A stretch of 64,000 nt of DNA from Dehalococcoides sp. JdFR-56 (GTDB lineage Bacteria > Chloroflexota > Dehalococcoidia > Dehalococcoidales > RBG-16-60-22). The position numbers and the translations under genes are program-made. Below are positions 1,526-26,512 of the stretch, piece by piece. The notes below the pieces were generated by a model, which was given only the letters and a program-made list of their open reading frames with translations, did not search any database and was not told the DNA's origin. The stretch covers positions 7,371 through 71,370 of the forward strand of contig MTNR01000072.1 of NCBI GenBank assembly GCA_002011495.1, read 5' to 3'. Position 1 is the first letter of the stretch. Each line of letters opens with the position of its first letter.

Positions 1526-1539
1526 TCTGGTTCCCCCTT

Positions 1540-2169
1540 TTATAGAAGACTCTTGGCGATGGCCACGGCCTCGACGGCGTCTCTGGCGTAGGCATCGGCC
1601 CCGATCTGCTGGGCGAAGGCCGGGGTCACCGGGGCGCCGCCGACCATCACCTTGATTTTGCTCCTCAGCCCGGCTTCCTTGAGGGCGCTTATGGTATCGG
1701 CCATCTTGGGCATGGTAAAGGTCAAAAGCGCCGATAGCCCCAGGATGTCAAAGTCACCGCTTTTAACCACGTCACAGAACTGCTCCGGGGCAACGTCAAT
1801 GCCTAGGTCGGTCACCTCCCAGCCATTTCCCTCCAGCATGAGGATGACGATGTTTTTGCCGATATCGTGTAAATCGCCCTGAACCGTGCCGATGGCATAC
1901 CTGCCGGCGTAGGCGGCTCCTTTGGTGGCTAGCTCGGGCCGCAGCAGCTCCAAGGATGCCTTCATGGCATCCCCCGCCATCAATAGCTCGGGGAGGTAAA
2001 TCTCACCCTTCTCGAAGGAGTTGCCCACTATCTCCATGGCGGGGAGAAGGCCTTTATCCAGGACCTCCTTGGCAGCTATCCCGCTATCCAGGGCCCGGCG
2101 GGTGAGGTCACCGGCCTTGGAGACCTCGCCTTCGGCAACGCTATGGGTAAGTTCGGTGAAATCAAACAT
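1540..2169 (-). CDS. Corrinoid (B12-binding) methyltransferase partner protein
   Basis: Has the DxHxxG B12-binding motif (GDLHDIGKN) and the downstream GLSALLT / MVGGAP Rossmann signature. I prefer the start at ATG 2169 (MFDFTEL...) because AGGAGG lies 9 nt upstream. The track ORF extends to 2232. Confidence 0.85.
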   Translation of the reverse strand: MFDFTELTHSVAEGEVSKAGDLTRRALDSGIAAKEVLDKGLLPAMEIVGNSFEKGEIYLPELLMAGDAMKASLELLRPELATKGAAYAGRYAIGTVQGDLHDIGKNIVILMLEGNGWEVTDLGIDVAPEQFCDVVKSGDFDILGLSALLTFTMPKMADTISALKEAGLRSKIKVMVGGAPVTPAFAQQIGADAYARDAVEAVAIAKSLL

Positions 2170-2349
2170 GCTTTGGAACCTCCTAGATATTTTTTCAAGC
2201 CAGGCACATTCAAGGTTACCCATATAATACACGAAGATACAAGCTGCGGTCTAGGGCGCGCTGTGATTAGGTCGTTGTTATCTCTACAAGGGGTAAAAGT
2301 ATATGGCCCAATGCTACAATATTCGGCGATTATTGGGTAGTTTTACCTC

Positions 2350-2378: not shown

Positions 2379-2431
2379 AACTTCCAGCGTCTTTTCGTTC
2401 AGGAACTTTCGGCTTGGAGGAATCAGCGATA

Positions 2432-3754
2432 GTGAGTTTGCGCCACTGGCATCGGGTTGGTTGGATTGGACTATTTCTTTTCCTTATCATAGCTTTATTG
2501 CTCGCCGGTTGTGGCCCAAAGGCACCCACACCTACCCCAGCGCCGGCCCCTGCCCCGGCGCCGACAACGCCAGCTCCAGCACCAACCCCGACGCCAACCC
2601 CGGCGCCCACTCCCGCCCCAGCTCCCTCACCTATACCTAAGCCGGCACCACCGAAAACAACGCCAACGTCAATCGGGCCTTACATCGCGCATACTACTGA
2701 AGGTAGAGACGATTGTTTGGCCTGTCACGGTGTCTTCGTGATGTGGCCAGTCCCAGCCACCCATGAGGGCCGCACCAACGAGACCTGTCAGGGATGCCAT
2801 CAGCCCATCCCCGGCGGCCCCACCCTAATAGCCCATGCCGTGGAAGGGCGGAGCCAGTGCGATACCTGTCACTCCGATGAGGGGTTGGTGGCTCTGCCGG
2901 CAGACCACGAGGGACGGACGGCGAAAATCTGCCTCATGTGCCACGAGGTATCTCCCACCATGCCTACCCTCATCGCCCACAAGACAGCGGGCAAGGAGAA
3001 TTGTTCTGCCTGCCATGCTGAGGGGGCGCTGGTTGTCCTGCCTGCTACTCATGAGGGGCGCACCGACCAGATGTGCCTGGCCTGCCATGAGGTCTCGCCG
3101 GTAACCCCAACGCTCATCGCCCACAAGACAGCGGGTAAGGAGAACTGTTCTGCCTGCCATGCTGAGGGGGCGCTGGTTGCCCTGCCTGCTACTCATGAGG
3201 GGCGCACTGACCAGATGTGCCTGGTCTGTCACGAGGTCTCGCCAGTAACGCCACCTCTTATCACGCATAGTCTGGTGGGCCGAGGCACTTGTTCTGCCTG
3301 CCATGCTGATGGCGCGCTGGTCGCGGTGCCGGCCAGCCATAAGGGCAGGACTGACCAGACTTGTCAGGTCTGCCACGAGGTCTCGCCGGTAACTCCAACG
3401 CTCATCGCCCACCGCATTGAGGGAAGGGAAACCTGCTCCACCTGCCACGCTGCAGGCGCGGTGGTGGCTCTGCCTGATACTCATGAGGGGCGCACCGATG
3501 AGATGTGCCTAGTTTGCCACAAGGTGGCTCCGGTGCTGCCGCCGGATGCCCCGCATACGCTGGCAGACCGTCACCCGTGTGCTGACTGCCACGCTGAAGG
3601 GAAACTGGTGGGGGCACTGCCCGAGACCCATGTGGACCGCTCCGATGAGACCTGTGAGCTCTGCCATGAGGTCGTTCCCGGCGGCGTGGCCCAGATACCG
3701 CACAAGCTGGAAGGCCGCACTGATTGCACGCTCTGCCACATCCCCGCCCAATAG
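2432..3754 (+). CDS. Multiheme c-type cytochrome lipoprotein (15 CxxCH motifs)
   Basis: Signal peptide with lipobox (LLLAGCG), a PA/PT-rich linker, then 15 CxxCH motifs that alternate with conserved extra His residues (IAH / THEGRT). The GTG at 2432 has GGAGGA 10 nt upstream. The track uses TTG at 2414. Confidence 0.9.
   Translation: MSLRHWHRVGWIGLFLFLIIALLLAGCGPKAPTPTPAPAPAPAPTTPAPAPTPTPTPAPTPAPAPSPIPKPAPPKTTPTSIGPYIAHTTEGRDDCLACHGVFVMWPVPATHEGRTNETCQGCHQPIPGGPTLIAHAVEGRSQCDTCHSDEGLVALPADHEGRTAKICLMCHEVSPTMPTLIAHKTAGKENCSACHAEGALVVLPATHEGRTDQMCLACHEVSPVTPTLIAHKTAGKENCSACHAEGALVALPATHEGRTDQMCLVCHEVSPVTPPLITHSLVGRGTCSACHADGALVAVPASHKGRTDQTCQVCHEVSPVTPTLIAHRIEGRETCSTCHAAGAVVALPDTHEGRTDEMCLVCHKVAPVLPPDAPHTLADRHPCADCHAEGKLVGALPETHVDRSDETCELCHEVVPGGVAQIPHKLEGRTDCTLCHIPAQ
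2963..3538 (+). repeat. In-frame 144-bp (48-aa) tandem repeat, about 4 copies, inside the 15-heme cytochrome gene
   Basis: The unit PTLIAHKTAGKENCSACHAEGALVVLPATHEGRTDQMCLACHEVSPVT recurs. Copies 1 and 2 are near-identical at the DNA level (2963-3106 versus 3107-3250). Copies 3 and 4 are diverged, and degenerate units flank the array. Confidence 0.85.
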
Positions 3755-3862: not shown

Positions 3863-6800
3863 CTAATGGCAGGGGCCACCTAGGCAGTTATCCTTCGTCC
3901 ATCCTCCGGGGCCAGCCCATGAGGAGATCACCAGCTTGGAGCCGTTGCTGTAAGGCGCTGGGTCGGTGGTCTGCACCACCATAGCCCGGGTCCATCCGCC
4001 ATGGGGGATGGCGCTGTGGCAGTTCTGGCAGCCTTTCACTGCGCTTCGGCCCATATGGAAGGCGTGGAGGTTGGGGCGATCTCCGGAGAAGCTGGTAAGG
4101 CCGGCAGTATTGGAGCCGCCGGCATCATACACATTCGGGTCGTGGCACTGGAGACAGAGGCTATATGATGTGCCCGTGGTAGTATCACTCCAGGTGCCCC
4201 GCAGCAGATAGGCATTATTGGAGCCGTGCGGCCCCCTAGGGTCGGTTGCCGTCTCGCTGGCATGGCAGCTGGAGCAGCCCAGGGGTGTGTCCTTTGACAT
4301 GCCTGAGCCCGGGGTAAAGGTCATGTCTCTGTTGCTGGCATTGGTCCGCGGCGTGTTGCCTGAGGCTGCGGTCAGGTCATTCTCCACCCAGTGGTAGGAG
4401 GCGTTGTTGACGTTGAACTCCTTGGCCTGGTCAGTCTCGGTGATGCCACCGGTGTGGGAGAGGGGTGGCGTAACATCGTAGGCATAGGATGAGTGGCACT
4501 TAAAGCACAGCTGATACTCCTCAGTTATCGGCGAGACCCTGGTATAATTGGCGCTGGTGAGCGCTGTCCACCCGGTGGTGGGGTTGCTCACCGTCACCCC
4601 CCAAACCCGCTCAATGGTTCTGGCCAGGTCACCGAATCCAGGGGTGGAGGCCCCTGTCCAGGCAGCGTGCGGGTTGTGGCAGTCCTCACACTCCACGTGA
4701 CGGTTGGAGGCGGGAAGCCAGTTGTAGTATCCCTCACCGGTTCCGTGGCTCCCCTCGGTGGCGCCGATGGGGTGAGTGTAACTCTTGTTGCTGAACTGGG
4801 AGGCGATGTCAGTTCTGGCGCCGGTGCCATCGTGGCAAGCGTTGCACAGCCCCTCCTCAGGCCATACCTTCCGCAGTTTCTTCCCTGAGGCCGTGTGTGC
4901 CCGGTGGCAGGAGACGCACTTATCAGTATCCGTGGCAAAATTATAGTGTGGGCTAAACGGATTATCATCCTCCCATACCGAGATGGTGGCGTAGTTGGCG
5001 TAGCTGTTAAAGGCGGTTCCGGCATCGGTCAGGCGGAAGGAGTAGGCGGTGTAATACTCAGCATTGGCATTGGCCTGAACGTTAAATTCAATCTCCGTAT
5101 AGGAGCCAGCATCAAGGGAGATAGCCGATGGCGGAGAGGCGTCATACGCGTATCCTGCCTGGGCGATGCCGGTTCCGGTCCCCAGGGCGAAATCGGTGGT
5201 GGCGATGGTGTCCCCGTTGTTGAACTGGCTGGTGGGCGCGATAAAGAAGGGGTCTGTTCCCGAGGTGGTTGGCACCGCCGTCCAAGTACCTCCTGACGAG
5301 AGATACTCCAGTTGAGGTAGCCAGCTCTTGGCGGTGCCGCCGTTATTATACACCTGGAAGCGCACCCGGAAATTGGTGTTTCGTCTGATGCCCCTGGTTT
5401 TGGTATCAGTGGCCTCATACCACTGCATTGAGGAGAGGGGGGTATCCTGGCCGATGCGGTAGTGAGCCTCACGGATGTTACCCGGCGCCGTTGATATCGT
5501 ATAGGCAAGGTCAATCCTAGAGTTCTCCGACGAGGTATCAAAGCCCAGGTAAACGGTGGCGGGGTCAGCGGTGCGCACCCAGAACTCCACCCCGAAGCGC
5601 TCCTCAGGCCCGATGATGGTGCCGGTTGGCACATTCACACTCCAGTTGAATAGGCCGTAGTTCGGATAGGCAGTGAGGTCCTGATTGGTCTTATTGGTAT
5701 CGGAGAAAAGCTCCGTCTTCGTTCCAGAGCTGTCAATTTTATATATCTTCACTATTAGCCGTTTCATGGTAACCACGGGGTCACTGCTGAAGTAGATATT
5801 GAAGGTCCAGGTGCTCCCGATGTCCCACTGCTCGCCCGCCGGGACCGGGTCGGAGACGAAGATGGAGATGCCGTCGGCATCGGCTAGCTTGACATCGGAG
5901 CCTGCTGGTGAGGAGGCGGTAAGCTCAGCTAGGACGCCCACCGGGGCGGTGCTGTTCAGCGTATTATAAGTGACGGAGCCCACCACCACATCGGCAGCGT
6001 GGAGATAGTCCGTCACCGCTGGGTCAGCCACCAGCACCTCCCAGGTGCCGCTGGTGGCTAGGCCCGGGGAATGGCTGATTTCACTCCAGAACCGGTATTT
6101 GGTGGGGGGTATGGTTCTCTCCGGACTGAGCAAGACGTATTCCCGGCTGACGGCTCCCCCGGCGCTTATGTCTCCCACCGCCCACTCAATCTTGTTGGTG
6201 GTCGCGTCCACGGGGGAGACCACGCCTCCACGGGCATCACTGACCACCCACGAGGCAGGGAAGTAGTCAATGAGCTTGACCGAGGTCAGCCCTACCTCCA
6301 CGGAGACTCCTATCCGCATGGTGACCTGGGAATTGGGGGGAACCTTGTGCTGCCCCACCTTCTCGCCAAAGAGGCGCCGCTCAAAGGTAGCCAGTCTACT
6401 GATGGACATAACGCTGAAGCGGGTAAAGTGGCTCACCGGACTGCTGATGGTGTTTGCCGCCGGGTCAACGGTGATGCCTTTAAGCATAACCCACTGGCCG
6501 TTGTTCTCATCCCAGAAGGCGATGAACAGGCTTTCTTCGTTGATCCCTTTGGGGATATCCGCCTCATCATAGGTGAGGGTCATGGTTATCGGCGGATCAA
6601 AGGTGGCGCCGCTGGGCCCAAGCTCATAAGCGGTGCCAATAACGCTGGCGCCCTTGGGCAAGGGTGGCAGCTCAGGCGCCTCAATTATGCTTATTTCAGT
6701 AAGGGGCTTCCCTTCAGCGGTTTTGCCGATGGTTCCTTGGTTGATGGTGAGCCTGAGCTTCCCATCCAGAGATTCAGCGGTGGTGGCGCTGGTGAATACC

Positions 6801-7462
6801 CCCTTGGCATCAACAATGCCCATCAGGTCCTTGAAGCCGGGCGCCAGCGAGCGCCCCGGGGCCACGAGCGCAGCGGAGAGGCTGAACAGGCTGCTGCTTT
6901 GGGTGAAGCTGTCGCCATTGGCGGCGAGCCTAGCATCAATGCGGTAATCGCCGGCGGGCCAGTCGGGCGGGGAGGTCCAGGTGACATCATAGGTTATGGA
7001 GACGGCGCCGGCTCCATAGGCGTAGCTATAGCCGGAGACATAACCCCAGGAATAGGCACCGCTTGGCGCCCAGTAAGCGTACCCGGTGCCGGTGGTATAC
7101 GCCCAGCCATACCCGGGGGTAGCCGTAACGCTGGCAGCACCGCCACCCGTTTCTGCCGTGGTATAGCTTTTGGAGCCTGTGCCCAGGGGGAGGTTGGTCA
7201 GGGTGGCCTGGTAGGTCTCCCGCGCGTCCGCTTTATAAATATATAGGGTGACCTGCTCAATGGGCACCAGCTCCTGGTCCTCAATGGTGATGGTCACGCT
7301 GAAGGAGTGGGTGCCGCCGGCGGTTCCGGAAGCCGGGGGGGCGATGGTTATCTCCAGCGCGCTCGTTGGGGCAGCAAACCACAGCGAGGTGCCGGTGACC
7401 ATCACCAGAATAAGTGCCAGCACTATTCTGGATGCACTCTTCTTAAACCCTTTCATATCCAC
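3863..7462 (-). CDS. Large secreted/surface protein with a C-terminal multiheme cytochrome domain (7 CxxCH plus a terminal CxxxxCH)
   Basis: 1199 aa with an N-terminal signal/TM segment, followed by ~830 aa that are beta-rich and rich in Gly/Thr/Ser/Tyr. The C-terminal ~370 aa carry CVSCHRAH, CNACHDG, CEDCHNPH, CFKCHS, CSSCHA, CLQCHD and CQNCHS. The protein ends in CLGGPCH-stop. Confidence 0.85.
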   Translation of the reverse strand: MDMKGFKKSASRIVLALILVMVTGTSLWFAAPTSALEITIAPPASGTAGGTHSFSVTITIEDQELVPIEQVTLYIYKADARETYQATLTNLPLGTGSKSYTTAETGGGAASVTATPGYGWAYTTGTGYAYWAPSGAYSWGYVSGYSYAYGAGAVSITYDVTWTSPPDWPAGDYRIDARLAANGDSFTQSSSLFSLSAALVAPGRSLAPGFKDLMGIVDAKGVFTSATTAESLDGKLRLTINQGTIGKTAEGKPLTEISIIEAPELPPLPKGASVIGTAYELGPSGATFDPPITMTLTYDEADIPKGINEESLFIAFWDENNGQWVMLKGITVDPAANTISSPVSHFTRFSVMSISRLATFERRLFGEKVGQHKVPPNSQVTMRIGVSVEVGLTSVKLIDYFPASWVVSDARGGVVSPVDATTNKIEWAVGDISAGGAVSREYVLLSPERTIPPTKYRFWSEISHSPGLATSGTWEVLVADPAVTDYLHAADVVVGSVTYNTLNSTAPVGVLAELTASSPAGSDVKLADADGISIFVSDPVPAGEQWDIGSTWTFNIYFSSDPVVTMKRLIVKIYKIDSSGTKTELFSDTNKTNQDLTAYPNYGLFNWSVNVPTGTIIGPEERFGVEFWVRTADPATVYLGFDTSSENSRIDLAYTISTAPGNIREAHYRIGQDTPLSSMQWYEATDTKTRGIRRNTNFRVRFQVYNNGGTAKSWLPQLEYLSSGGTWTAVPTTSGTDPFFIAPTSQFNNGDTIATTDFALGTGTGIAQAGYAYDASPPSAISLDAGSYTEIEFNVQANANAEYYTAYSFRLTDAGTAFNSYANYATISVWEDDNPFSPHYNFATDTDKCVSCHRAHTASGKKLRKVWPEEGLCNACHDGTGARTDIASQFSNKSYTHPIGATEGSHGTGEGYYNWLPASNRHVECEDCHNPHAAWTGASTPGFGDLARTIERVWGVTVSNPTTGWTALTSANYTRVSPITEEYQLCFKCHSSYAYDVTPPLSHTGGITETDQAKEFNVNNASYHWVENDLTAASGNTPRTNASNRDMTFTPGSGMSKDTPLGCSSCHASETATDPRGPHGSNNAYLLRGTWSDTTTGTSYSLCLQCHDPNVYDAGGSNTAGLTSFSGDRPNLHAFHMGRSAVKGCQNCHSAIPHGGWTRAMVVQTTDPAPYSNGSKLVISSWAGPGGWTKDNCLGGPCH

Positions 7463-7600: not shown

Positions 7601-7633
7601 AAAAATGAGAGCGGCCCTCTAAGGGCCGCTCTC
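7601..7633 (-). terminator. Rho-independent terminator after hexaheme cytochrome A
   Basis: Perfect 11-bp stem gagagcggccc/gggccgctctc (7607-7633) with a 5-nt loop. On the minus strand it is followed by a U-run (AAAAA on plus, 7601-7605). It sits 46 nt past the stop at 7679. Confidence 0.7.
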
Positions 7634-7678: not shown

Positions 7679-8632
7679 CTAGTTCTGCGACAAGTCACTG
7701 CTGCTATGGCACTGCAAGCAGACGCCGCGGTTATCCACGGTGAGCAAGCGGCTGTACTGTCCTTCAGTCCCGGTCTGCCAGGTCGCGTTGGCGCTGCCAT
7801 CAGGCCAGGTTGGTCCAGCGGCGTTGCCACTCATGCTGGCTGAGGTACCGTGCGCCACATGGCAGGCCAGACACTCGCCGCTCAGGGTATCAGTATGATG
7901 GCGGTAGTTGAAGGGCGAGCTGCCGGAGTCAGTGCTGCCCGAGCCGGGTGATGCCTTATATCTGGTATGGCACTGGCCGCACCACTCAGCCATCTTGTTG
8001 GTGACGTTGGCGGAGTAGGCGCTCAAGTCACGGTAGTTATTGGCATCATAGGTGATGGTGTAGTTGTCGCTGAGTCCGGCCGTGATGTTCACCGCGGTGA
8101 GGCTGGACCATCCGGAGAGGGAGGTGGGCTTGGGCCTGAGGATGCGGTAATTGGAATTGCCGTGAGGGTTGTGGCAGTTACCGCACTCCAGGGCAACCGT
8201 CTCACCGTTACCCGTGGTTCCCGAGCCCCAGGCGGTGGCGGCGCTGGCTCCCACAGTATGCTTGGAGGTGATATTGCCTGAAGTCACATTGCCCGAGGCT
8301 GAGGTGTCCATATAGGCCTGCTCGAAGCCGCCTCCCCTCAGCCCGGCGTTCTGGACGCCCTGGCTGGTGCCGAGGTAAACACCAGTGGTCACCTTGGTAT
8401 CAGCGGAGGTACCATCATGACAGCTGGTGCACAGGGCATACTGAGTGGTGCTCTTCAGGAGCTTGGCTGCGGTACCAGTGTGCGCCCGGTGACACCCGGC
8501 GCAGGCATCAGTGGTGGCGGTGAATGTCCCCTGGTGCGGCCCTCCCGTGGCGAAAACCGTCGTCGCCATGACTGAAACCAGGGAAACAATTGCGAGGAAG
8601 ACTACGACCGCTCTCCATGTATTGGCTCTCAT
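7679..8632 (-). CDS. Secreted hexaheme c-type cytochrome (paralog A; OmcS-like motif order)
   Basis: Signal peptide, then 6 CxxCH motifs: CAGCHRAH, CTSCHDG, CGNCHNPHG, CGQCHTRY, CLACHVAHG, CLQCHSS. It is collinear with 14190..15110 and shares GLRGGGFEQA, YRILRP, EWCxQCHTRY, FNYRH and a C-terminal LSQN. Confidence 0.9.
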   Translation of the reverse strand: MRANTWRAVVVFLAIVSLVSVMATTVFATGGPHQGTFTATTDACAGCHRAHTGTAAKLLKSTTQYALCTSCHDGTSADTKVTTGVYLGTSQGVQNAGLRGGGFEQAYMDTSASGNVTSGNITSKHTVGASAATAWGSGTTGNGETVALECGNCHNPHGNSNYRILRPKPTSLSGWSSLTAVNITAGLSDNYTITYDANNYRDLSAYSANVTNKMAEWCGQCHTRYKASPGSGSTDSGSSPFNYRHHTDTLSGECLACHVAHGTSASMSGNAAGPTWPDGSANATWQTGTEGQYSRLLTVDNRGVCLQCHSSSDLSQN

Positions 8633-8950: not shown

Positions 8951-9607
8951 TTACCCTTCGAAGTCTATGAGCCCCTTGCGCAGGGCGTACTTGGTCAGGT
9001 CCTCGCGCCTGGCCAAATTGAGCTTGCGCATCACTGCTTGACGATGTTTTTCCACTGTTCTTATGCTCAAGAACAGCTTCTCCGCCATCTCCCGGTTGGT
9101 GTATCCGGAGGCGGCCAGGCGGAGCACCTCTCTCTCCCTGGGGGTGAGCGAACTATATTTTTCGTCTTGTGGACCGGCGTCCGCCTTGACGAAGCCTTCC
9201 AGAAAGACCTTGGCTATGGCTGGGGAGAGAAAGACCTGCCCCTGACAGACCACATAGATAGCGTAGAGCAGCTCCTGTGGTTCCGCCTCCTTCAGGATAT
9301 AGCCTGATGCCCCAGCTCTGAGCACGGGGAAGAAGAACTCCTCATCGTCGTGCATGGTGAGGACGAGGACATTGATGTCAGGGAACTCCTTTTTGATTTG
9401 GCGGGTGGCCTCAATGCCGTTCATCCCCGGCAGCGCGATGTCCATCAGCACTAGGTCAGGGTGAAGCTCTCTTGCCTTCTCGATGGCCTCTTCTCCATGG
9501 GCTGCCTCACCCGCCACCTCAATGTCAGGCTGGCTCTCCAGGAGCGAGCGTATGCCCGCCCGAACAATCCCGTGGTCATCCACGATCAAAATGCGTATCT
9601 TGCCCAT
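8951..9607 (-). CDS. Response regulator, NarL/FixJ (REC + LuxR-type HTH)
   Basis: REC motifs are present (ILIVDDH, LVLMDIALPGMNG). The C-terminus has LTPREREVL...SIRTVEKH, a LuxR-type HTH. It abuts the kinase gene. Confidence 0.9.
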   Translation of the reverse strand: MGKIRILIVDDHGIVRAGIRSLLESQPDIEVAGEAAHGEEAIEKARELHPDLVLMDIALPGMNGIEATRQIKKEFPDINVLVLTMHDDEEFFFPVLRAGASGYILKEAEPQELLYAIYVVCQGQVFLSPAIAKVFLEGFVKADAGPQDEKYSSLTPREREVLRLAASGYTNREMAEKLFLSIRTVEKHRQAVMRKLNLARREDLTKYALRKGLIDFEG

Positions 9608-9609
9608 GG

Positions 9610-11088
9610 CTAGACACTTCCCAGAGGGATGCGGAACTCGATACTGGTGCCCTTCCCTCGTTTGGATTCTATCTTGAGCTCGCCCCCGAGGATGGCTACC
9701 CTTTCCCGTATGCCGCGCAGCCCCCAGGACTCGGGGGCCTGAAACGCTGCCTCAACATCGAACCCCTTACCGTTATCCTTGATGGTGGTGGTGACCATTG
9801 AGTTTTTCGCCGTTACTTGGATGTTGACCTCCGAGGCGCCAGAGTGGCGGATGATGTTGGTGATCGCCTCCTGAATGATTCTGAACAGCGTAATCTCTAC
9901 TTGGGGAGAGAGCCGGTCCTTCAGGCCGATGAAGCTGAGCTGCGCCTTGATTTTCTGGGCTTCCAGATGGCTCTTGACGTAGGAGCGTAGCGCCGGAACC
10001 AGACCGAGCTGGTCGAGAACTTCAGGGCGAAGGTCGTAGATTAGCTTGCGCAGGTCGGCCAGGGTGCGAGCGGCGAGGGAGCGTGACTGGGCTAGCTTTT
10101 CTTTGGCTTCGGTGGCTTCATCAGGCAAGGCCTCTATCGCCCGGGATAGATTCATCATGATCGCGGAGAGGGCCTGCCCAGCTTCATCATGGAGTTCCCG
10201 GGCCACCCGGCGCCGCTCCTCCTCCTGGGCGGAAATGAGCCTCTGCAGCAGCTGACCACGAACTGCCGCCATCTGCTGCACCTGCTTGGTCCTCTCCTGC
10301 ACCCTTGCCTCCAGCTCTCTCTTGGAATCCTCAAGGGCTCGGGCGTATTGCTCAACCCGCTCCGCCATCTCATTGAAGGTACGGGCCACCATGCCAACCT
10401 CGTCCTCCTTCTCCACCTCAGCCCTGGCGCTGAAGTCGCCTTTCGAAATCCGGCGCGCCGAGGCAGAGAGCTTGGAGAGAGGATTGAGCACCGCTGACCT
10501 GACCATGAAGGCCACCGCTCCCCCCACGGCGATAAAGGTGAGCCCACCAATCAGCGCCATGAGCAGCATCTGCGTCCTCAGTTGCTTCTCAATGGGGCTT
10601 CTGTTCAACCCAATCTCAATCGCCCCCAGCATCTTTGCCTCAGCGCCATGACACGTCTGGCATTCGGGCTTGTTCATTACTGGCATGATCACGCAGAGTT
10701 CGCTCTGCCCATACATTATCTCGGTTCTGGTCACTATCTTCCCTGTGGCCAGGGCCTGGGCGATTTCGGCATCGTGCCTTGTTTTACCGATCTCTGAGAT
10801 CTCGCCTGAGGCATACACTTTTTGGGTGCTGGAGAGGATGACCACCTCATTGATCAGTGGTACCGAGGCAATGCGCGCCACTGCATCTTGGATGTTCTCC
10901 TGCCCGCCCTCCAGCATGTCATGCTCCAGGGTCTCGTGAATCATCTCGGCCATGCTCAGCGCTGACTCTTCAAATTGGGAGAAGGCGGCCTGCCGCTGCA
11001 AGTGCAGCATGATTCCAGCGCCAGCTACCCCGATAACCAGCAGGATGAGAAAGATGAAGAAGGTGATTTTGTATTGAAGTTTCATCAC
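9610..11088 (-). CDS. Sensor histidine kinase (HAMP, HisKA_3, HATPase_c) with a CxxCH motif in the extracytoplasmic domain
   Basis: Two TM segments flank a ~150-aa outer domain that contains PECQTCHG. It also has a HAMP-like linker, an H-box (ARELHDEAGQAL) and a C-terminal ATPase region (DNGKGF...GLRGIRERV). Confidence 0.85.
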   Translation of the reverse strand: MMKLQYKITFFIFLILLVIGVAGAGIMLHLQRQAAFSQFEESALSMAEMIHETLEHDMLEGGQENIQDAVARIASVPLINEVVILSSTQKVYASGEISEIGKTRHDAEIAQALATGKIVTRTEIMYGQSELCVIMPVMNKPECQTCHGAEAKMLGAIEIGLNRSPIEKQLRTQMLLMALIGGLTFIAVGGAVAFMVRSAVLNPLSKLSASARRISKGDFSARAEVEKEDEVGMVARTFNEMAERVEQYARALEDSKRELEARVQERTKQVQQMAAVRGQLLQRLISAQEEERRRVARELHDEAGQALSAIMMNLSRAIEALPDEATEAKEKLAQSRSLAARTLADLRKLIYDLRPEVLDQLGLVPALRSYVKSHLEAQKIKAQLSFIGLKDRLSPQVEITLFRIIQEAITNIIRHSGASEVNIQVTAKNSMVTTTIKDNGKGFDVEAAFQAPESWGLRGIRERVAILGGELKIESKRGKGTSIEFRIPLGSV

Positions 11089-11105: not shown

Positions 11106-12992
11106 TCAATATCCCCACACTTGGATTCGGTTGTTCTCACGGTCGGCGATGTACAGCCTCCCCGCAGCGTCAATAGCCAAATCATTGGGGAAGTTGAACT
11201 CGCCGTTGCCTACCCCTCTCTGGCCGAAGGTGAACAGTTGCCTCCCTCCCTGCTCTAGGTCATAGACGCGAATCAGGTGACTGAAGGTATCAATCACATA
11301 GAGATAGTCCCCCTCTATGGCAATCCCCCGGGGGAACCCGACCACTTCCTTGGCACCGCTACCAAGCTCAGCCAGGAGCTGACCCTGGGCATCGAAAATT
11401 TGGACACGGTAGTTGTTGCTGTCAGAGACGTAGATTCGCCCGAGGCTATCCACGGCGACGTCATTGGGGAAGGAAAATTCCCCCTTGCCGTTACCCTCCT
11501 TGCCGAATTCCAGCTTCAGTTTCCCCGAGGCGTCAAATACCATGACCCGGTGCTTGAGGCTGGTCACCTCGGTGACGTAGAAATTGCCGCTGGCATCAAG
11601 GGCTAGGCCAAGGGGAGACCACCGCATCTCCGGATTGTCTCTGGGGGTAAAGGCGCCGAGATAGGCGCCGTCTACGTCATAGATATCTATGGTGCCCCTC
11701 ATCCGGTCAGAGACATACATGGTGCCCATGCGGTCAATGGCCGCATAGGTGGGGGCACGCTCCGCAGGCTCTGTTCCCGGAGGAACCAGAACCAAGATCT
11801 CATTTCCTTCGCCATCGAAAACCCGAGTAACGCGGTCACCCCGGCTCTCGGTAACCACGATGCGCTGCCCCGCCGGGTCAACCGCCACCCCAAGTGGCCG
11901 CTGTATATCGTAGATGGAGAAGAGATACTTGGGCGGGCCCTCCCGCACCACCGGCTTGGTGGGGGTAGCCCAGACTTCAGGGACGGGCAGGACCGGGAAG
12001 AACGGTCTCCGGATGACATCAACTCTGGCGAGGACAATGCCTGGTGCATGCTGTGCCAGAACCTCGTCCCGCTTCTCTTGGTAGTTGGCCGGGAGTGGCG
12101 GAGGCGCGGGAACTCTGGAGGCGGGCTTTATCGCTTTCTTCACCTTGAAAACGGCGGTGCCGGTTTCAGAATTGAGCGCCAGCAGGGAGGCACCGCCTAC
12201 CTTAACGTCGGAGCGGTCCTTGGCCACGGATTTTCTCGCTAGGTTTCTGGCCACGGTCACCAGCCTCTTCAGCACGGCCGGGTCCTCTCGCCATTCCTCA
12301 GGAAGCGGGGGTATGGCCACCACGTCACCGGCGTTGAGGGGAATGAGGGTCACCACCGCCCTCTGCTCACTATCTACAGTTATGGCGCTGACCCTGACGG
12401 CGCCCTGGCTGACCTCAAGGATGGTCTCCTGTGCCTTGCCTACCTTCACCTCAAGCATGGTGCCCTGGACCACTGCCACCTGGTTGAGGGTGAGGAGTTC
12501 AAAGAGAGAATCGGGGTTGGTCTGCCTTACCGCGGCGATGGCCACCCTCCCCTGAACGACCTCCAAGCCGATGGACCTAGCTGCCTCCAGGGGTTGCTCT
12601 TTGAGGCTTCGGCTCCAGGACTGGTGCACTTCAGCCTCGCCTTCAATCTTAACGGTGCTGCCATCAAAGTATTGCAGTACGGCTAGACTATCTGGCTTTG
12701 CTCTGATGTCATTGCCTGCTTCAAGCCAGGTTTTATCAGCTGACCCTAGGAATTCCCCCTGGTGGGTGGCGTAAACTTCCACCTCTCCCTTCAGGATGCG
12801 CAGCATCACCGGCTGCTCAACCCAGACTTCCCTTATCACCAGCCAGTAAATCGCGGCCAAAGCCAATACCAGCGCTGCGGCAATCCCCAGCCAGAGCCTC
12901 TTTCTCTTTCTCCAAGGAAAGCCCTTCGATCTGGAGAGCGCCGAGTTGAAGCTTATCCGCAGTCTGGAGATTAGTGGTGATAGTTTTACCAT
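11106..12992 (-). CDS. Membrane-anchored NHL-repeat beta-propeller protein
   Basis: The C-terminal half holds about 6 NHL-type repeats (e.g. GEFNFPNDLAIDAAGRLYIADRENNRIQVW). There is an N-terminal TM segment. I prefer the start at ATG 12992 (MVKLSPL...), 1 nt after the upstream TGA. The track extends to 13037. Confidence 0.8.
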   Translation of the reverse strand: MVKLSPLISRLRISFNSALSRSKGFPWRKRKRLWLGIAAALVLALAAIYWLVIREVWVEQPVMLRILKGEVEVYATHQGEFLGSADKTWLEAGNDIRAKPDSLAVLQYFDGSTVKIEGEAEVHQSWSRSLKEQPLEAARSIGLEVVQGRVAIAAVRQTNPDSLFELLTLNQVAVVQGTMLEVKVGKAQETILEVSQGAVRVSAITVDSEQRAVVTLIPLNAGDVVAIPPLPEEWREDPAVLKRLVTVARNLARKSVAKDRSDVKVGGASLLALNSETGTAVFKVKKAIKPASRVPAPPPLPANYQEKRDEVLAQHAPGIVLARVDVIRRPFFPVLPVPEVWATPTKPVVREGPPKYLFSIYDIQRPLGVAVDPAGQRIVVTESRGDRVTRVFDGEGNEILVLVPPGTEPAERAPTYAAIDRMGTMYVSDRMRGTIDIYDVDGAYLGAFTPRDNPEMRWSPLGLALDASGNFYVTEVTSLKHRVMVFDASGKLKLEFGKEGNGKGEFSFPNDVAVDSLGRIYVSDSNNYRVQIFDAQGQLLAELGSGAKEVVGFPRGIAIEGDYLYVIDTFSHLIRVYDLEQGGRQLFTFGQRGVGNGEFNFPNDLAIDAAGRLYIADRENNRIQVWGY

Positions 12993-12993
12993 C

Positions 12994-13911
12994 TCACTCT
13001 TTTCCCACCCCCAGCGCCTGCAATTTGGCCTGAGCAAGCCAAATGTCCGGGTCTAAGTTCAGGGCCTGCTGGTAGGCGCTGATGGCTTTCTCAATTTGGC
13101 CTTCCTTCTCATAAGCTAGCCCAAGCCCGAGGTAAGCATCAGCTAGGTCAGGCATGATGGCCACTACCTCCTCCAGCTGCCGCACCGCTTTACCGGTGGC
13201 ACCTGAACTGTAGCTCACCATGGCCTCGGCGTATCGGGCCAGGCCCTCCTGCCCGGTCTTCTTATAGCACTGGGCCAGGCCCTGATAGGCTTCAGCGAAG
13301 TTGGGCACAAAGCGTACCGCCTGCTTAAAGGACTCGATAGCCTTTTCCAGCTCCCCGGTATGCTGGTAGGTGGCCCCCAGCGTGTACCAGGCATCAGCGT
13401 CGGTCCTATCAATGGACAGCGCTTCCTCGAGATATTCAATGGCCTTTTCCGGCTTCTCCAAGTTAAAGTAGGCGACGCCCAGATAGTAGTAAACCCCCTC
13501 CAGCTGGCGGCTGACACCCCGCAGAGGGTTATCTTCATTTAGTTCCACCACTTTGAGGTAAGGCTCGAGGGCCTCCTCATAGCGCCCCTGCTCCATGTAA
13601 ATATCCCCGAGTGCCACCAGTGCCCCTTGATGGGAGCCATCTAGCTCCAGCGCTGCTTTAAGCTGGTCTGTGGCCTGCTCTAGGGAGCCCGCCTCATAAT
13701 AGAAGAGCGCCAGCTCCACCCGCTTGTCCGGGTCATCAGGATTCTGGGCCACCACCTTTTCCAGCCTGGCGACCTCTCTCTCCACAAGCTCCCCCGGCTG
13801 ATCGCGGGAGATGAGAAGGTAGGCGGTCACTCCACCAATCACTATGGCCAAGCCCGCAGCAACAAGTATGCTGAACCTCAGACTGCGCAAACGTCCCAAC
13901 ATCAGATTCAT
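12994..13911 (-). CDS. Membrane-anchored TPR-repeat protein
   Basis: N-terminal TM segment followed by multiple 34-aa TPR-like units (A..YY.LG.AY...G....A...Y..AL..DP). It is first in the TPR-NHL-kinase-regulator gene string. Confidence 0.8.
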   Translation of the reverse strand: MNLMLGRLRSLRFSILVAAGLAIVIGGVTAYLLISRDQPGELVEREVARLEKVVAQNPDDPDKRVELALFYYEAGSLEQATDQLKAALELDGSHQGALVALGDIYMEQGRYEEALEPYLKVVELNEDNPLRGVSRQLEGVYYYLGVAYFNLEKPEKAIEYLEEALSIDRTDADAWYTLGATYQHTGELEKAIESFKQAVRFVPNFAEAYQGLAQCYKKTGQEGLARYAEAMVSYSSGATGKAVRQLEEVVAIMPDLADAYLGLGLAYEKEGQIEKAISAYQQALNLDPDIWLAQAKLQALGVGKE

Positions 13912-14189
13912 CCTGCTGTGGGGGATTTCTTGGCTAACGAGTCTGCCCTCCGCTCCATAGTATACGATAGCGCCCCAAGCTAATCAAGCAATTCGGGGCT
14001 GGGGCAAATGTCCCCCAACCACCGACCTACCTGGGCCCAAGGCGCCTATCTCCCCAGGATGTTTAGGAAATGTTTAGAAATCCCCAGTGAGTTTTAGGCA
14101 TTTGTTTAGCCTCACCCACCTACAATGGGCCCAGAAAGCAGCGCGGTAGTGACCGAACTTTCGCTTTCAAGCCTGAAGTAGGAGGAGTG

Positions 14190-15110
14190 ATGAAAAAGAT
14201 AAGATATATCCTGCCGCTTGTGGTGCTCCTCGCCAGTCTCTTATTTGCTAGTCTAGCTCTTGCCGATAATGGCCCGCATAGTCAGGACAAGATGAGCGAC
14301 CCTGAGCACTGCACGCTGTGTCATCGGTCCCACTCCTCTGCGGGCCCCGGGCTGCTGAGGGAGAGCCAGAATCTGGCCGCTTTCTGTTATACCTGTCACG
14401 GGAGAGACCGCTCCGGGGCGGCCACCAATGTTCAGGATGGCCGGTACTCCAATGGGGAGGGGTTGAGGGGCGGTGGCTTTGAACAGGCAGTGATGGACCC
14501 GGGGCTGACCGGAACTCCCTCAAGCAAAAAGGTGACCTCGGCGCACAGCGTTGATAGCTCCCTGGTGAGAGCCTGGGGCGGCGGCGATATCAGCAGCACC
14601 CCCGATTATGGGAACTTGATAGCGCTGGACTGCACCAGTTGCCATAATCCTCACGGCAATGGCACCTATCGCATGCTGCGCCCCCGGCCCAAGGGGATGT
14701 TCAATGAGGAAAACGCGGAGCCAGTGGTGGTGCCTGATGAAGATTCGCCCACCTATACCATCACCTATGATGAGACCACCCACTACCGTGATACTTCCTA
14801 TGTGCCGGAGAATCTGGATAAATGGTGTGCCCAGTGCCATACCAGGTATTTAGCCGGCCCTGAGGCGGGGCACACCCCGTCTGGTGATGCTATCTTCAAC
14901 TTTCGGCACCCCACTGAAGGCTTGCCTGGTGGCTGTCTAGCCTGTCATGTGGCTCATGGCACCACGGCCACAGTGGGGGAATATGGTGGGGCAGTGAACC
15001 TTCCCGATGGCACCTCCGGTGGCGGCGCCAGCGATAGCCGCCTGCTCCACACCGATGGCCGCGGCGTGTGCCTCCAGTGCCACAGCGCCAGCTCTCTCAC
15101 CCAAAACTAG
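14190..15110 (+). CDS. Secreted hexaheme c-type cytochrome (paralog B; OmcS-like motif order)
   Basis: Signal peptide, then CTLCHRSH, CYTCHG, CTSCHNPHG, CAQCHTRY, CLACHVAHG, CLQCHSAS, ending in LTQN. GGAGGAG lies just upstream of ATG 14190. The track starts at GTG 14187. Confidence 0.9.
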   Translation: MKKIRYILPLVVLLASLLFASLALADNGPHSQDKMSDPEHCTLCHRSHSSAGPGLLRESQNLAAFCYTCHGRDRSGAATNVQDGRYSNGEGLRGGGFEQAVMDPGLTGTPSSKKVTSAHSVDSSLVRAWGGGDISSTPDYGNLIALDCTSCHNPHGNGTYRMLRPRPKGMFNEENAEPVVVPDEDSPTYTITYDETTHYRDTSYVPENLDKWCAQCHTRYLAGPEAGHTPSGDAIFNFRHPTEGLPGGCLACHVAHGTTATVGEYGGAVNLPDGTSGGGASDSRLLHTDGRGVCLQCHSASSLTQN

Positions 15111-25179: not shown

Positions 25180-25923
25180 ATGATGGAGAATTTTGTCGCT
25201 AGCCTAACTAGTCTACTACCGTTCGGATATGCCTTTGGCGCCGGCATGGCGACCGGGGTCAGCCCCTGCGGTATCGCCATGCTGCCCGCCTATGTTTCCC
25301 TCTATCTGGGGGTGGAAGAGGGAGAGCCACTCAGCGGCTCCTCGCCCCGTCGAGTTGCCTGGGCGCTGATAATGAGCGGGGCCGTCACCCTGAGCTTCGT
25401 CGCCCTTTTTGGTGCCATGGGGGGCTTGCTTGCGGCAGGAGGCCAATTCCTGCTCGCCTTTATCCCCTGGATAGCCGTGCTTATTGGTGCGGCGCTTATT
25501 CTTTCGGGCATCTTTCTCCTCACTGGTGCCTCTATCTACAGCAGCCTGCCGGCACGCCTGGTGGCCCGGCTGGGCAGGCCTGACGGCCCTGGGGTAAAAG
25601 GTTTCATCGCCTTCGGTGTGGCCTATGCCATCGCCGCGCTGAGCTGCACGCTGCCCGTTTTCCTGGCGGTGGTGGCGAGCGCCCTGACCACAGGGGGGTT
25701 CGCCTCAGGACTATTTCAGTTTGTCAGCTATGCTTTGGGCATGGGGTTGGTCATCACCGTGGTAGCCATAGGGTCAGTGCTCTTCAGAGAGACGATGAAC
25801 AGATGGCTGCGACGTCTGGTGCCAGTTGTGGCCAGACTCAGCGGTTTGCTGCTTATCTTTGCTGGCGGCTATATTCTCTACTTCTGGTTTGTGGTGGGGG
25901 ACATCCTGAACTGGACATTCTGA
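25180..25923 (+). CDS. ccdA: Cytochrome c biogenesis thiol-disulfide transporter, CcdA/DsbD-TM family
   Basis: 6-TM protein with GVSPCGIAMLPAY and a second Cys-containing TM segment (ALSCTLPVF). A thioredoxin-like gene follows 13 nt downstream. Confidence 0.85.
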   Translation: MMENFVASLTSLLPFGYAFGAGMATGVSPCGIAMLPAYVSLYLGVEEGEPLSGSSPRRVAWALIMSGAVTLSFVALFGAMGGLLAAGGQFLLAFIPWIAVLIGAALILSGIFLLTGASIYSSLPARLVARLGRPDGPGVKGFIAFGVAYAIAALSCTLPVFLAVVASALTTGGFASGLFQFVSYALGMGLVITVVAIGSVLFRETMNRWLRRLVPVVARLSGLLLIFAGGYILYFWFVVGDILNWTF

Positions 25924-25936
25924 GAGGAGGGAAGAG

Positions 25937-26512
25937 ATGGATAAATTACCGGGACGCAGTAAATTATGGTCTCGCCATCTGGCCCTGGTGGTGCTGGCGC
26001 TCTCTATGCTTGTGGCGATACAGGGTTGTGCCGCCAGCCCTCCGGACTCGGGCAGAGGCGCGGGTGCCCGGGCAATCGAGCTCGAGCCTGCCCCCGAGGT
26101 GGGACATCCGGCGCCTGATTTTAGTTTGAAAGACCTGGACGGCAATACAGTTCGCCTGAGAGACCTGCGGGGCAGGGTGGTCTTCATCAACTTCTGGGCT
26201 AGCTGGTGCCCCCCGTGCCGGGCCGAGATGCCTGAGATTGAGGCCGTGCACCAGGAGTACAAGGATAAGGGGGTGGTGGTGATTGGCGTGGATATCTCCG
26301 AGCCGGAGAGCGTGGTCCGCCAGTACATACGGCAAGGCGGTTTTAGCTGGACGATAGTCCTGGACAGCACCGGGGAAGTCGCCAGAGACTATCGGATTAC
26401 TGCCATTCCTACCAGCTTCTTTGTGGATAGAGACGGGGTGATTCGGGCGGTGAACGTTGGTGCCATGACCAAGAGGGCCATGGAGGAAAAGCTGGCCCAG
26501 GCGATGCGATGA
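25937..26512 (+). CDS. Membrane-anchored thioredoxin-like thiol:disulfide oxidoreductase (ResA/TlpA family)
   Basis: Signal anchor with Cys (IQGCAA) and the WCPPC active site (FWASWCPPCRAEMP) in a TlpA-like context. Confidence 0.9.
   Translation: MDKLPGRSKLWSRHLALVVLALSMLVAIQGCAASPPDSGRGAGARAIELEPAPEVGHPAPDFSLKDLDGNTVRLRDLRGRVVFINFWASWCPPCRAEMPEIEAVHQEYKDKGVVVIGVDISEPESVVRQYIRQGGFSWTIVLDSTGEVARDYRITAIPTSFFVDRDGVIRAVNVGAMTKRAMEEKLAQAMR

Follow-up and report, generated by a model that had tools for sequence, protein, structure and literature searches.

A secreted hexaheme cytochrome distantly related to OmcS in a conserved, likely electron-exporting gene set of single-membrane bacteria

Cytochrome filaments have been resolved by cryo-electron microscopy (cryo-EM) in few organisms (e.g., Geobacter, Desulfuromonas, and two archaea). 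In filaments of the hexaheme OmcS of Geobacter sulfurreducens (GSU2504; PDB 6EF8/6NEF), the hemes stack in the order of their motifs, and 11 heme ligations are made in cis and 1 in trans, the trans histidine being donated by the neighboring subunit to heme 5 (PMC6584659). For a single-membrane bacterium, the closest described case is CwcA of Thermincola (TherJR_1122/Tfer_0075), a hexaheme assigned to the cell wall for which OmcS is the closest structural template (18% identity); CwcA is insoluble when expressed in Escherichia coli and was modeled in 2021 as an OmcS-like, wall-spanning polymer with a trans histidine on heme 5 (PMC7911101). The idea of an OmcS-like polymer in single-membrane bacteria is therefore not new, and in 2020 a Coriobacteriales genome was noted to encode a distant OmcS homolog (PMC7399161). 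Whether such bacteria bridge their thick wall with cytochrome filaments at all has so far been addressed only by the CwcA homology model. Here, we analyze a hexaheme cytochrome (hexaheme A) encoded at positions 7679..8632 (minus strand) of a 64-kb stretch of DNA from Dehalococcoides sp. JdFR-56 (assembly GCA_002011495.1; contig MTNR01000072.1, positions 7,371 to 71,370); this whole stretch is referred to below as the window.

We consider it likely that hexaheme A is a secreted homolog of OmcS that forms a small part of a conserved electron-export module of single-membrane bacteria and relays electrons through the envelope. A preliminary description of the locus had proposed hexaheme A as a possible nanowire cytochrome within a dedicated extracellular electron transfer cluster; the relationship to OmcS and the electron-export cluster are retained here, while the diagnostic value that it gave to the CxxCHxxH pattern is not.

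The open reading frame (ORF) of hexaheme A has an ATG start and encodes 317 amino acids (aa), and its translation contains exactly six CxxCH motifs. The order and flanking residues of these motifs had been read exactly in the preliminary description (including the FNYRH element between hemes 4 and 5), as had the occurrence of the CxxCHxxH spacing in a second hexaheme of the window (paralog B; CTLCHRSH) and in a 1199-aa cytochrome (CVSCHRAH). The features of the gene are as follows, with conservation judged in an alignment of the hexaheme A family (A1; 59 homologs).

aa 1 to 28, minus strand: predicted Sec-type signal peptide, MRANTWRAVVVFLAIVSLVSVMATTVFA then TGGPH, with likely cleavage after VFA and before TGGPH
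8534..8536, minus strand: H33 in a GPH motif near the mature N terminus, invariant in A1 and aligned with the histidine of OmcS FHSGG
8480..8503, minus strand: heme 1 motif CAGCH followed by RAH (aa 44 to 51), aligned with OmcS CEGCHTMH
8417..8431, minus strand: heme 2 motif CTSCH (aa 68 to 72; CTSCH-DG, aa 68 to 74), invariant, with LLKSTTQ before the motif
8258..8260, minus strand: H125, candidate distal heme ligand, invariant, with GGGF upstream
8162..8185, minus strand: heme 3 motif CGNCHNPH (aa 150 to 157), then G and YRIL, aligned with OmcS CSSCHDPHG and YRIL
7967..7981, minus strand: heme 4 motif CGQCH (aa 218 to 222) with EW before and TRY after (E-W-CGQCH-TRY, aa 216 to 225), aligned with OmcS SEWCANCHT
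7898..7912, minus strand: FNYRH element between hemes 4 and 5 (aa 241 to 245), with H245 as a candidate distal heme ligand
7850..7873, minus strand: heme 5 motif CLACHVAH (aa 254 to 261; CLACH-VAHG, aa 254 to 262), invariant, aligned with OmcS CLSCHRAH
7706..7720, minus strand: heme 6 motif CLQCH (aa 305 to 309; CLQCH-SS, aa 305 to 311), eight residues before the C terminus
7607..7633, minus strand: terminator-like hairpin between hexaheme A and the 1199-aa gene, 45 nucleotides past the stop codon, with a 12-bp stem (9 G-C pairs) and then ATTTTTGG

A scan of the protein sequence detected no lipobox and no second hydrophobic segment, the N terminus being the sole hydrophobic stretch; hexaheme A is thus predicted to be a secreted protein with neither a membrane anchor nor a wall anchor. 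The hairpin is a match of a consensus scan that was read in the sequence, and its function is predicted only. Of 56 family genes, 21 have a comparable hairpin behind them (among these are most of the tandem paralogs of Neobacillus/Bacillus), and the hairpin in the window would fit production of hexaheme A in excess over the downstream 1199-aa cytochrome.

A protein identical to hexaheme A is encoded on three other public contigs. In a word-indexed search, hexaheme A matched over 1,872 clusters defined at 90% identity (E ≤ 1e-3), and the named ones are almost all from Chloroflexota (i.e., Dehalococcoidia and Anaerolineae). When 1.84 billion representatives at 50% identity were searched exhaustively with HMMER, 4131 matched at E ≤ 1e-3, 1702 at 1e-10, and 549 at 1e-30. 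On the basis of the identical copies, the many homologous clusters, and the conserved motifs and histidines, hexaheme A is not a chance ORF. The records of its relatives are labeled merely "cytochrome c3 family protein" or "predicted CXXCH cytochrome," and its top Pfam/NCBIfam matches (Pfam E ≤ 1) are generic heme families only (Paired_CXXCH_1, c7/c3, and a sub-threshold DmsE). Among these, Paired_CXXCH_1 (PF09699) scores 72 bits in four stretches (gathering threshold, 20.6; E = 3e-20). NCBIfam holds no OmcS-specific model, and OmcS itself matches generic families only, including TIGR01905, the counterpart of Paired_CXXCH_1.

The six CxxCH motifs are invariant or nearly so in A1, and the same applies to H33, H51, H125, H157, H245, and H261. 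The conserved non-motif histidines thus number exactly six (i.e., one candidate distal ligand per heme), and bis-histidine ligation is probable for all six hemes. At heme 1, C44, C47, and H48 are invariant and H51 is conserved in at least 90% of the sequences; the invariant residues of the heme 3 region are C, C, H, P, H, and G, together with Y, R, and L of the following motif. Many of the positions have counterparts in OmcS. The LLxxxxQxxxC spacing before heme 2 matches LLQGATQSSSC, H125 aligns with the invariant GH-N of OmcS (H135 in precursor numbering), and GGGF aligns with GGDF. The tryptophan before heme 4 is present in 99% of hexaheme A family members and in 88% of OmcS family members. 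In the interval between hemes 4 and 5, where OmcS keeps an invariant histidine (LRHP), H245 shows no variation and R244 almost none. Heme 6 is invariant, with R-G-V in front, and is aligned to R-A-L-CNKCH of OmcS.

Searched against the PDB, the A1 profile matched OmcS (6ef8_A; E = 2.5e-5). The match forms one block of 179 profile positions, which covers hemes 2 to 4 and includes CHDPHG, YRIL, and EWCxxCHT. An hhalign comparison of A1 with OmcS as a single sequence aligned hemes 1 and 2 only, after which we built an alignment of the OmcS family (A2; 38 sequences). A1 and A2 aligned with a probability of 99.5% (E = 5e-23), and the value remained at 98.9% (E = 1.6e-17) when the signal peptides were removed; in global mode with relaxed settings, all six hemes were colinear. 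We also scored decoys in which the CxxCH positions and the composition were kept and the residues in between were shuffled (n = 760). The A1 profile gave a mean of 31.0 bits (range, 16 to 45) on the 38 real OmcS-family proteins, compared with 0.6 ± 6.1 bits (maximum, 23.6) on the decoys, and the reciprocal test gave 9.9 for the real proteins and −5.9 ± 5.1 for the decoys. These differences show that about 30 bits depend on the order of residues outside the CxxCH motifs.

Intermediate sequences connect the two families (the E values of these comparisons refer to small local databases). A Coriobacteriia hexaheme (L029) is 29% identical to hexaheme A over 414 aa (E = 2e-32) and 24% identical to OmcS over 452 aa (E = 1e-13). 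In addition, both profiles recognize "mini" OmcS-like hexahemes (279 to 337 aa) of double-membrane (diderm) bacteria, which were found in Thermoanaerobaculia, Zixibacteria, and a metagenome-assembled genome (MAG) labeled as a deltaproteobacterium; the two highest-scoring ones (279 and 304 aa) reach 58 to 69 bits. The OmcS motif order that the preliminary description had given agrees with the 6ef8_A alignment and with the OmcS family consensus, and the kinship that it suggested extends beyond the heme motifs in the profile, hhalign, decoy, and bridging comparisons. Since significant alignment reaches beyond the motifs, the homology stands.

A shared signature was evident when the hexaheme A family, the OmcS family, and 118 Bacillaceae hexahemes were compared. 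All members of the three families have a histidine 4 to 16 residues ahead of heme 1. CxxCHxxH occurs on hemes 1, 3, and 5 in 97 to 100% of the members and on hemes 2, 4, and 6 in 0 to 3%; on heme 1 specifically, it is present in 97% of the hexaheme A family and 100% of the OmcS family. Hexaheme A itself carries this odd-heme signature (CxxCHxxH on hemes 1, 3, and 5 only, with a histidine upstream of heme 1). The median tail past heme 6 is three residues in both the hexaheme A family and OmcS. Each of the six conserved histidines of hexaheme A has a counterpart in OmcS, and OmcS has a seventh (in SYHIS) without a counterpart in hexaheme A. In particular, H51 would be the positional equivalent of OmcS His16, as judged from the homology. 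Taken together, the comparisons identify hexaheme A as a true, but distant and shortened, relative of OmcS. We use the term "OmcS-related hexaheme superfamily," as defined here, for OmcS, OmcT, OmcJ, and GSU2501 together with the diderm mini hexahemes and the hexahemes of single-membrane bacteria.

Similarities between hexaheme A and OmcS include six CxxCH motifs in the same order, histidines between hemes 2 and 3 and between hemes 4 and 5, a C-terminal heme 6, and the non-heme elements LLxxxxQ, GG(G/D)F, YRIL, and EW-C before heme 4; in both, Sec cleavage leaves a conserved histidine near the mature N terminus. Hexaheme A is nevertheless not an OmcS ortholog, because it is about 120 aa shorter and three of the Geobacter neighbors tested are missing. 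The mature proteins have about 289 and 407 aa, respectively, and are about 24% identical. The heme spacings, from hemes 1-2 to hemes 5-6, are 24, 82, 68, 36, and 46 to 51 residues in hexaheme A, compared with OmcS-family medians of 38, 94, 100, 93, and 73. The hosts also differ: as a member of the Chloroflexota, a phylum generally regarded as single-membraned, that of hexaheme A presumably has one membrane, unlike the host of OmcS.

Regarding the neighboring genes, the Geobacter locus has a spermine-synthase-like gene between omcT and the third hexaheme gene, and genes for a YncE-type propeller and a 718-aa protein downstream of the third hexaheme. No homologs of these three proteins were found in the 64-kb window, and the only omcS-locus neighbors with counterparts in the window are an NHL propeller, generic kinase/regulator proteins, and TPR repeats. 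The GSU2500-2493 block downstream of omcS, of which our comparison covered only the first genes, has been linked to nanowire maturation and secretion (PMC12977616).

We surveyed the genomic context of the family on homolog-bearing contigs and in one genome per species, calling ORFs anew and then applying phmmer and hmmsearch. The order of a TPR gene, an NHL propeller gene, and one to three hexaheme genes was found at 34 of the 35 loci having at least 2.5 kb of upstream sequence, and at most of the surveyed loci the hexaheme genes are followed by a homolog of the 7-heme C-terminal domain of the 1199-aa protein. The loci with the TPR-NHL-hexaheme order belong to Chloroflexota, Actinomycetota (Solirubrobacterales, Micrococcales, and Coriobacteriia), Bacillota, and one MAG labeled Deinococcus. 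The cultured carriers among the Bacillota are Neobacillus drentensis, N. niacini, N. vireti, and Bacillus sp. OK048. Six Neobacillus/Bacillus loci (L031, L032, L034, L037, L039, and L041) have the TPR and NHL genes with two or three tandem hexahemes, and five of the six have the 7-heme protein; behind most of the tandem hexaheme genes of these Bacillaceae lies a hairpin whose stem has 12 to 14 bp and whose tail is T-rich. On one Chloroflexota contig (L023, 5511-14904), the complete TPR-NHL-hexaheme set occurs twice in tandem, as though the whole module had been duplicated.

NHL propellers also adjoin OmcS-like hexahemes in diderms, i.e., in Geobacter (L073 and L077), Thermodesulfobacteriota, and Zixibacteria. 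Geobacter genomes that carry OmcS have a gene for a 315-aa NHL propeller directly upstream of omcS, and its product resembles the NHL protein of the window (BLASTP, 1e-12; phmmer, 66 bits). At six loci in Acidobacteriota, Zixibacteria, and Thermodesulfobacteriota (L042, L048, L049, L052, L053, and L065), a pair made up of an NHL gene and a short OmcS-like hexaheme gene lies beside genes for giant cytochromes of about 1,000 to 1,250 aa, which have 42 CxxCH motifs and are built from paired-CXXCH repeats.

Two kinds of longer relatives were identified. Chloroflexota proteins of 661 to 840 aa (L009, 7953-12538; L010, 3167-5152; L012, 7881-10190) have one complete hexaheme module at the N terminus, followed by 6 to 10 more CxxCH motifs of a different type that start 11 to 12 residues past heme 6. 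From their sequences, these 12- to 16-heme proteins appear to be natural single-chain extensions of the hexaheme wire. They were considered as tandem hexaheme duplications, an interpretation that was rejected given the single N-terminal module and the unrelated hemes behind it; they therefore provide no argument for head-to-tail stacking. The second kind (P0026 and P0015; also L008, 10001-11599) is 57 to 62% identical to hexaheme A and carries about 210 aa of N-terminal, beta-sandwich-like repeats that sit directly before the conserved N-terminal histidine and resemble the N terminus of the 1199-aa cytochrome of the window.

In the window, the genes on the minus strand follow the order TPR protein, FecR/NHL propeller, kinase, LuxR-type regulator, hexaheme A, and 1199-aa cytochrome. 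These genes and the associated plus-strand genes are as follows.

2414..3754, plus strand: 15-heme lipoprotein, 446 aa, with a lipobox (LLLAGC), a Pro/Thr/Ala linker of about 70 aa, and matches to Pfam Cytochrome_C7 and Paired_CXXCH_1
3863..7462, minus strand: 1199-aa cytochrome, directly downstream of hexaheme A, with a signal peptide or anchor and about 820 aa that are heme-free and beta-sandwich-like
8951..9607, minus strand: LuxR/NarL-type response regulator (Pfam Response_reg and GerE on the identical gene in L001)
9610..11088, minus strand: sensor histidine kinase (Pfam HAMP, HisKA_3, and HATPase_c on the identical gene in L001)
11106..13037, minus strand: membrane-anchored FecR plus NHL-repeat beta-propeller protein (NHL, 1e-31; FecR, 1e-6; transmembrane-like segment at aa 46 to 64)
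12994..13911, minus strand: membrane-anchored TPR protein, 305 aa (Pfam TPR families, about 1e-42; N-terminal hydrophobic segment)
14187..15110, plus strand: hexaheme paralog B, 307 aa, six CxxCH motifs, divergent from the TPR operon
15216-16922, plus strand: lipoprotein, 568 aa (PLAGC), directly after paralog B; its linker is rich in proline and spans about 110 aa, and its C-terminal domain has no Pfam match
25180..26512, plus strand: genes for a DsbD_TM/CcdA-like membrane protein and a thioredoxin (AhpC-TSA/Redoxin), by Pfam matches

Hexaheme A thus sits among extracytoplasmic multiheme cytochromes, as had been proposed from the ORFs, and the suggestion that such proteins occur outside the Geobacterales agrees with the identity of paralog B to a protein (P0098) labeled at NCBI as that of a Dehalococcoidia bacterium (MAG). 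Paralog B is 42 to 43% identical to hexaheme A. The C-terminal domain of the 1199-aa cytochrome has seven CxxCH motifs and one CxxxxCH motif; a link of this 7-heme domain to OcwA was considered and is unsupported by sequence, the domain having no PDB match. The CxxCH motifs of the 15-heme lipoprotein lie in approximately seven near-identical, tandem c7-like repeats of about 45 aa each, and this protein may be the membrane-anchored electron donor of the module. The CcdA/thioredoxin-type genes plausibly supply thiol reduction for cytochrome c maturation, with an uncertain link to the module that is drawn from function and proximity.

Other genes of the window lie outside this set. A 951-aa membrane protein that joins Fer4 and FAD/NAD(P)-oxidoreductase domains is encoded at 21183-24038 (plus strand), and subunit I of a heme-copper oxidase and a UbiA-family (heme O synthase-like) gene are located at 28694-31182 (plus strand). 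At 470-2232 (minus strand), a URO-D/MtaA-like methyltransferase gene lies beside a gene for a corrinoid protein with a B12-binding domain, i.e., a methyl-transfer system adjoining the cytochrome cluster. The region 36000-58000 has a G+C content of 0.44 to 0.51, compared with 0.57 to 0.60 in the first 35 kb, and contains a Type ISP restriction-modification enzyme (48362-51661, minus strand), an adjacent SIR2_2-domain protein (46600-48354, minus strand), and several ORFs without Pfam matches; it looks like a horizontally acquired defense island.

We propose that the module comprises a membrane-anchored TPR protein, a membrane-anchored NHL propeller, one to three hexahemes, and a larger, approximately 7-heme cytochrome with surface-type beta-sandwich domains, to which a two-component system and the 15-heme lipoprotein would be added in the window. 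Hexaheme A would be a small and probably abundant component located in the envelope outside the membrane. As in OmcS, its six hemes would probably be arranged in a linear chain that follows the order of the motifs, and this chain would relay electrons between membrane-anchored (lipoprotein) cytochromes and the surface cytochrome or external acceptors/donors. The lipoprotein cytochrome with its proline-rich spacer and the cytochrome with a heme-free, surface-type domain are features of the neighboring genes that support such a role.

Several results weigh against this proposal. A single-sequence phmmer search with hexaheme A did not reach OmcS in the PDB at E ≤ 10, and a family profile is therefore needed to detect the relationship. 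When all CxxCH columns were masked, the hhalign probability dropped to 15%, which indicates that the motifs and their spacing carry much of the profile-profile score; we judged this masking harsh and used the segment-shuffled decoys instead. The AlphaFold2 model of hexaheme A (predicted local distance difference test [pLDDT], 74.6; predicted template modeling score [pTM], 0.73; no hemes in the model) had no Foldseek match in the PDB, including 6EF8. Foldseek is weak on loop-dominated folds, and a control model of OmcS (pLDDT, 71.5; also without hemes) retrieved 6ef8_A at template modeling scores of 0.81 to 0.86, a control helped by 94% sequence identity. Finally, given its heme-copper oxidase genes, the host is no obvious obligate metal reducer and is probably not a strict anaerobe. 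If the likeness to OmcS were coincidental, hexaheme A would be a generic paired-CXXCH cytochrome of the MtrA/DmsE or NrfB kind, with which the loss of signal on masking and the generic Paired_CXXCH_1 and DmsE-family matches would agree, as would the fact that MtrA (6r2q_A; E = 7e-8) tops the PDB matches of the A1 profile. However, the MtrA match consists of short repeated pieces (17 to 51 profile positions), in contrast to the one 179-position stretch of OmcS, and motif convergence is further contradicted by the score that depends on residue order between the motifs, the full-length bridging alignments, the shared LLxxxxQ, GG(G/D)F, YRIL, and EW elements, and the NHL neighbor gene common to the Geobacter omcS locus. 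We therefore consider convergence highly improbable and already largely refuted. It is also rather improbable, though not to that degree, that hexaheme A is a monomeric soluble carrier or the redox partner of an enzyme (e.g., the NHL-propeller protein or the 951-aa FAD/FeS oxidoreductase) with no dedicated extracellular conduit. Such a shuttle would fit a signal peptide without an anchor, the local similarity of the A1 profile to an octaheme nitrite reductase around hemes 3 and 4 (E = 5.6e-5), the oxidoreductase and the oxidase within 20 kb, and the fact that most OmcS paralogs have no known filament role. Nevertheless, the conserved partners are multiheme cytochromes with surface-type domains and lipoprotein spacers rather than catalytic subunits, the oxidoreductase and oxidase genes lie outside the gene order conserved in other phyla, hexaheme A has no catalytic-type heme motif (CxxCK) and lacks no distal histidine, and a freely soluble secreted protein would escape from a single-membrane cell.

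Within the favored electron-export role, hexaheme A might act as a true OmcS-type homopolymer, i.e., a wall-spanning or extracellular filament of head-to-tail subunits in which heme 6 would stack against heme 1 of the next subunit, H51 would be the distal ligand of the neighbor's heme 5, and the TPR and NHL proteins would be assembly or anchoring factors. We regard this as possible but doubtful. The preliminary description had taken CxxCHxxH as a signature of inter-subunit ligation; because the pattern is generic on hemes 1, 3, and 5 of all three families and forms the core of Paired_CXXCH_1 (as also found in MtrA/DmsE), it is not diagnostic of filaments, and only the apparent positional equivalence of H51 and OmcS His16 carries weight for trans ligation. 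The one-to-one correspondence of the six conserved non-motif histidines with OmcS histidines would, if the fold is conserved, make conserved trans ligation the simplest reading, but an assignment in cis only is equally possible by count (six histidines for six hemes). A filament is also consistent with the C-terminal position of heme 6, as in OmcS; with a secreted, unanchored protein in a single-membrane host; with the common tandem paralogs and the terminator-like hairpin, which suggest a highly expressed structural subunit; and with the modeling and insolubility of CwcA (PMC7911101). AlphaFold confidence is lowest around heme 1 and past heme 5 in hexaheme A, and the poor prediction of the heme 1 segment is shared by the OmcS control. 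On the other hand, the 12- to 16-heme relatives keep the H51 equivalent even though their hemes continue past heme 6 in one chain, which would block stacking of heme 6 on heme 1, and the relatives at 57 to 62% identity bear their approximately 210 aa of repeats right before the N-terminal histidine. Moreover, about 120 aa of OmcS are missing, the hexaheme A model has no structural match to 6EF8, and OmcS alone among the four Geobacter paralogs is known to polymerize. A broader version, in which the TPR-NHL-hexaheme-7-heme set is an ancient, dedicated builder of OmcS-type polymers through or beyond the single-membrane envelope, with TPR and NHL as its assembly/anchoring platform and an NHL-hexaheme pairing that predates the split from OmcS, seems unlikely to us.

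Our literature search on OmcS-like and hexaheme cytochromes of Chloroflexi found no paper on the hexaheme A family. Nor did the literature covered describe how large this Chloroflexota-centered family is, that it occurs in three single-membrane phyla (cultured Neobacillus among them), that the TPR-NHL-hexaheme order is fixed, or that the family and omcS have an NHL neighbor in common; some of this may be treated by Shen et al. 2025, who studied the OmcS assembly machinery. The shortened relatives of OmcS form a large, previously unrecognized group (no fewer than 549 clusters at 50% identity and E ≤ 1e-30), and the signature together with the gene-order rule can be used to spot such systems in metagenomes. 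The TPR and NHL proteins are candidate accessory factors, and filament formation and electron export are testable in the cultured Neobacillus/Bacillus carriers. Should the polymer-building interpretation hold, Chloroflexota, Actinomycetota, and Bacillota, the cultivable Neobacillus among them, would widely possess cytochrome "nanowires"; without polymerization, the family would still mark a likely electron-export route in the abundant subsurface Chloroflexota.

Among the known systems, the MtrA/DmsE decahemes share with hexaheme A a doubled CxxCHxxH...CxxCH unit, the likeness being confined to short repeated units. They have ten hemes rather than six and reside inside an outer-membrane porin, for which a single-membrane host has no place, and membership of hexaheme A in the DmsE family (TIGR03508) was rejected (47.3 bits, compared with a cutoff of 192.2; six hemes). 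The NHL clusters of diderms are closer in that an NHL propeller adjoins multiheme cytochromes including an OmcS-like hexaheme, as in Geobacter loci with 26-heme, 16-heme, NHL, and OmcS-like genes and at loci L042, L049 to L053, L073, and L077. NHL propellers in cytochrome clusters are likewise known from D. ferrophilus (DFE_0448-0451 and DFE_0461-0465; PMC5815863). Unlike the set in the window, the diderm clusters contain very large cytochromes (16 to 42 hemes) and have no TPR gene at that position.

CwcA, which was proposed to pass electrons through the wall to a surface cytochrome, resembles hexaheme A in its published description as a hexaheme with a signal peptide that belongs to a multi-cytochrome electron-export pathway of a single-membrane host (PMC7911101); the host of CwcA belongs to the Bacillota, whereas that of hexaheme A belongs to the Chloroflexota. 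Gavrilov et al. placed relatives of TherJR_1122 near the "bacillary hexahemes." Together with the Bacillaceae members of the hexaheme A family, this placement gives an indirect link to CwcA that fits but proves nothing; in a homolog search from a Neobacillus member, the best 120 matches were all from Bacillaceae. Hexaheme A fits the CwcA-type description in being secreted, unanchored, homologous to OmcS, and encoded among extracytoplasmic multiheme cytochromes, and the relay role that we propose for it would equal that proposed for CwcA of Thermincola.

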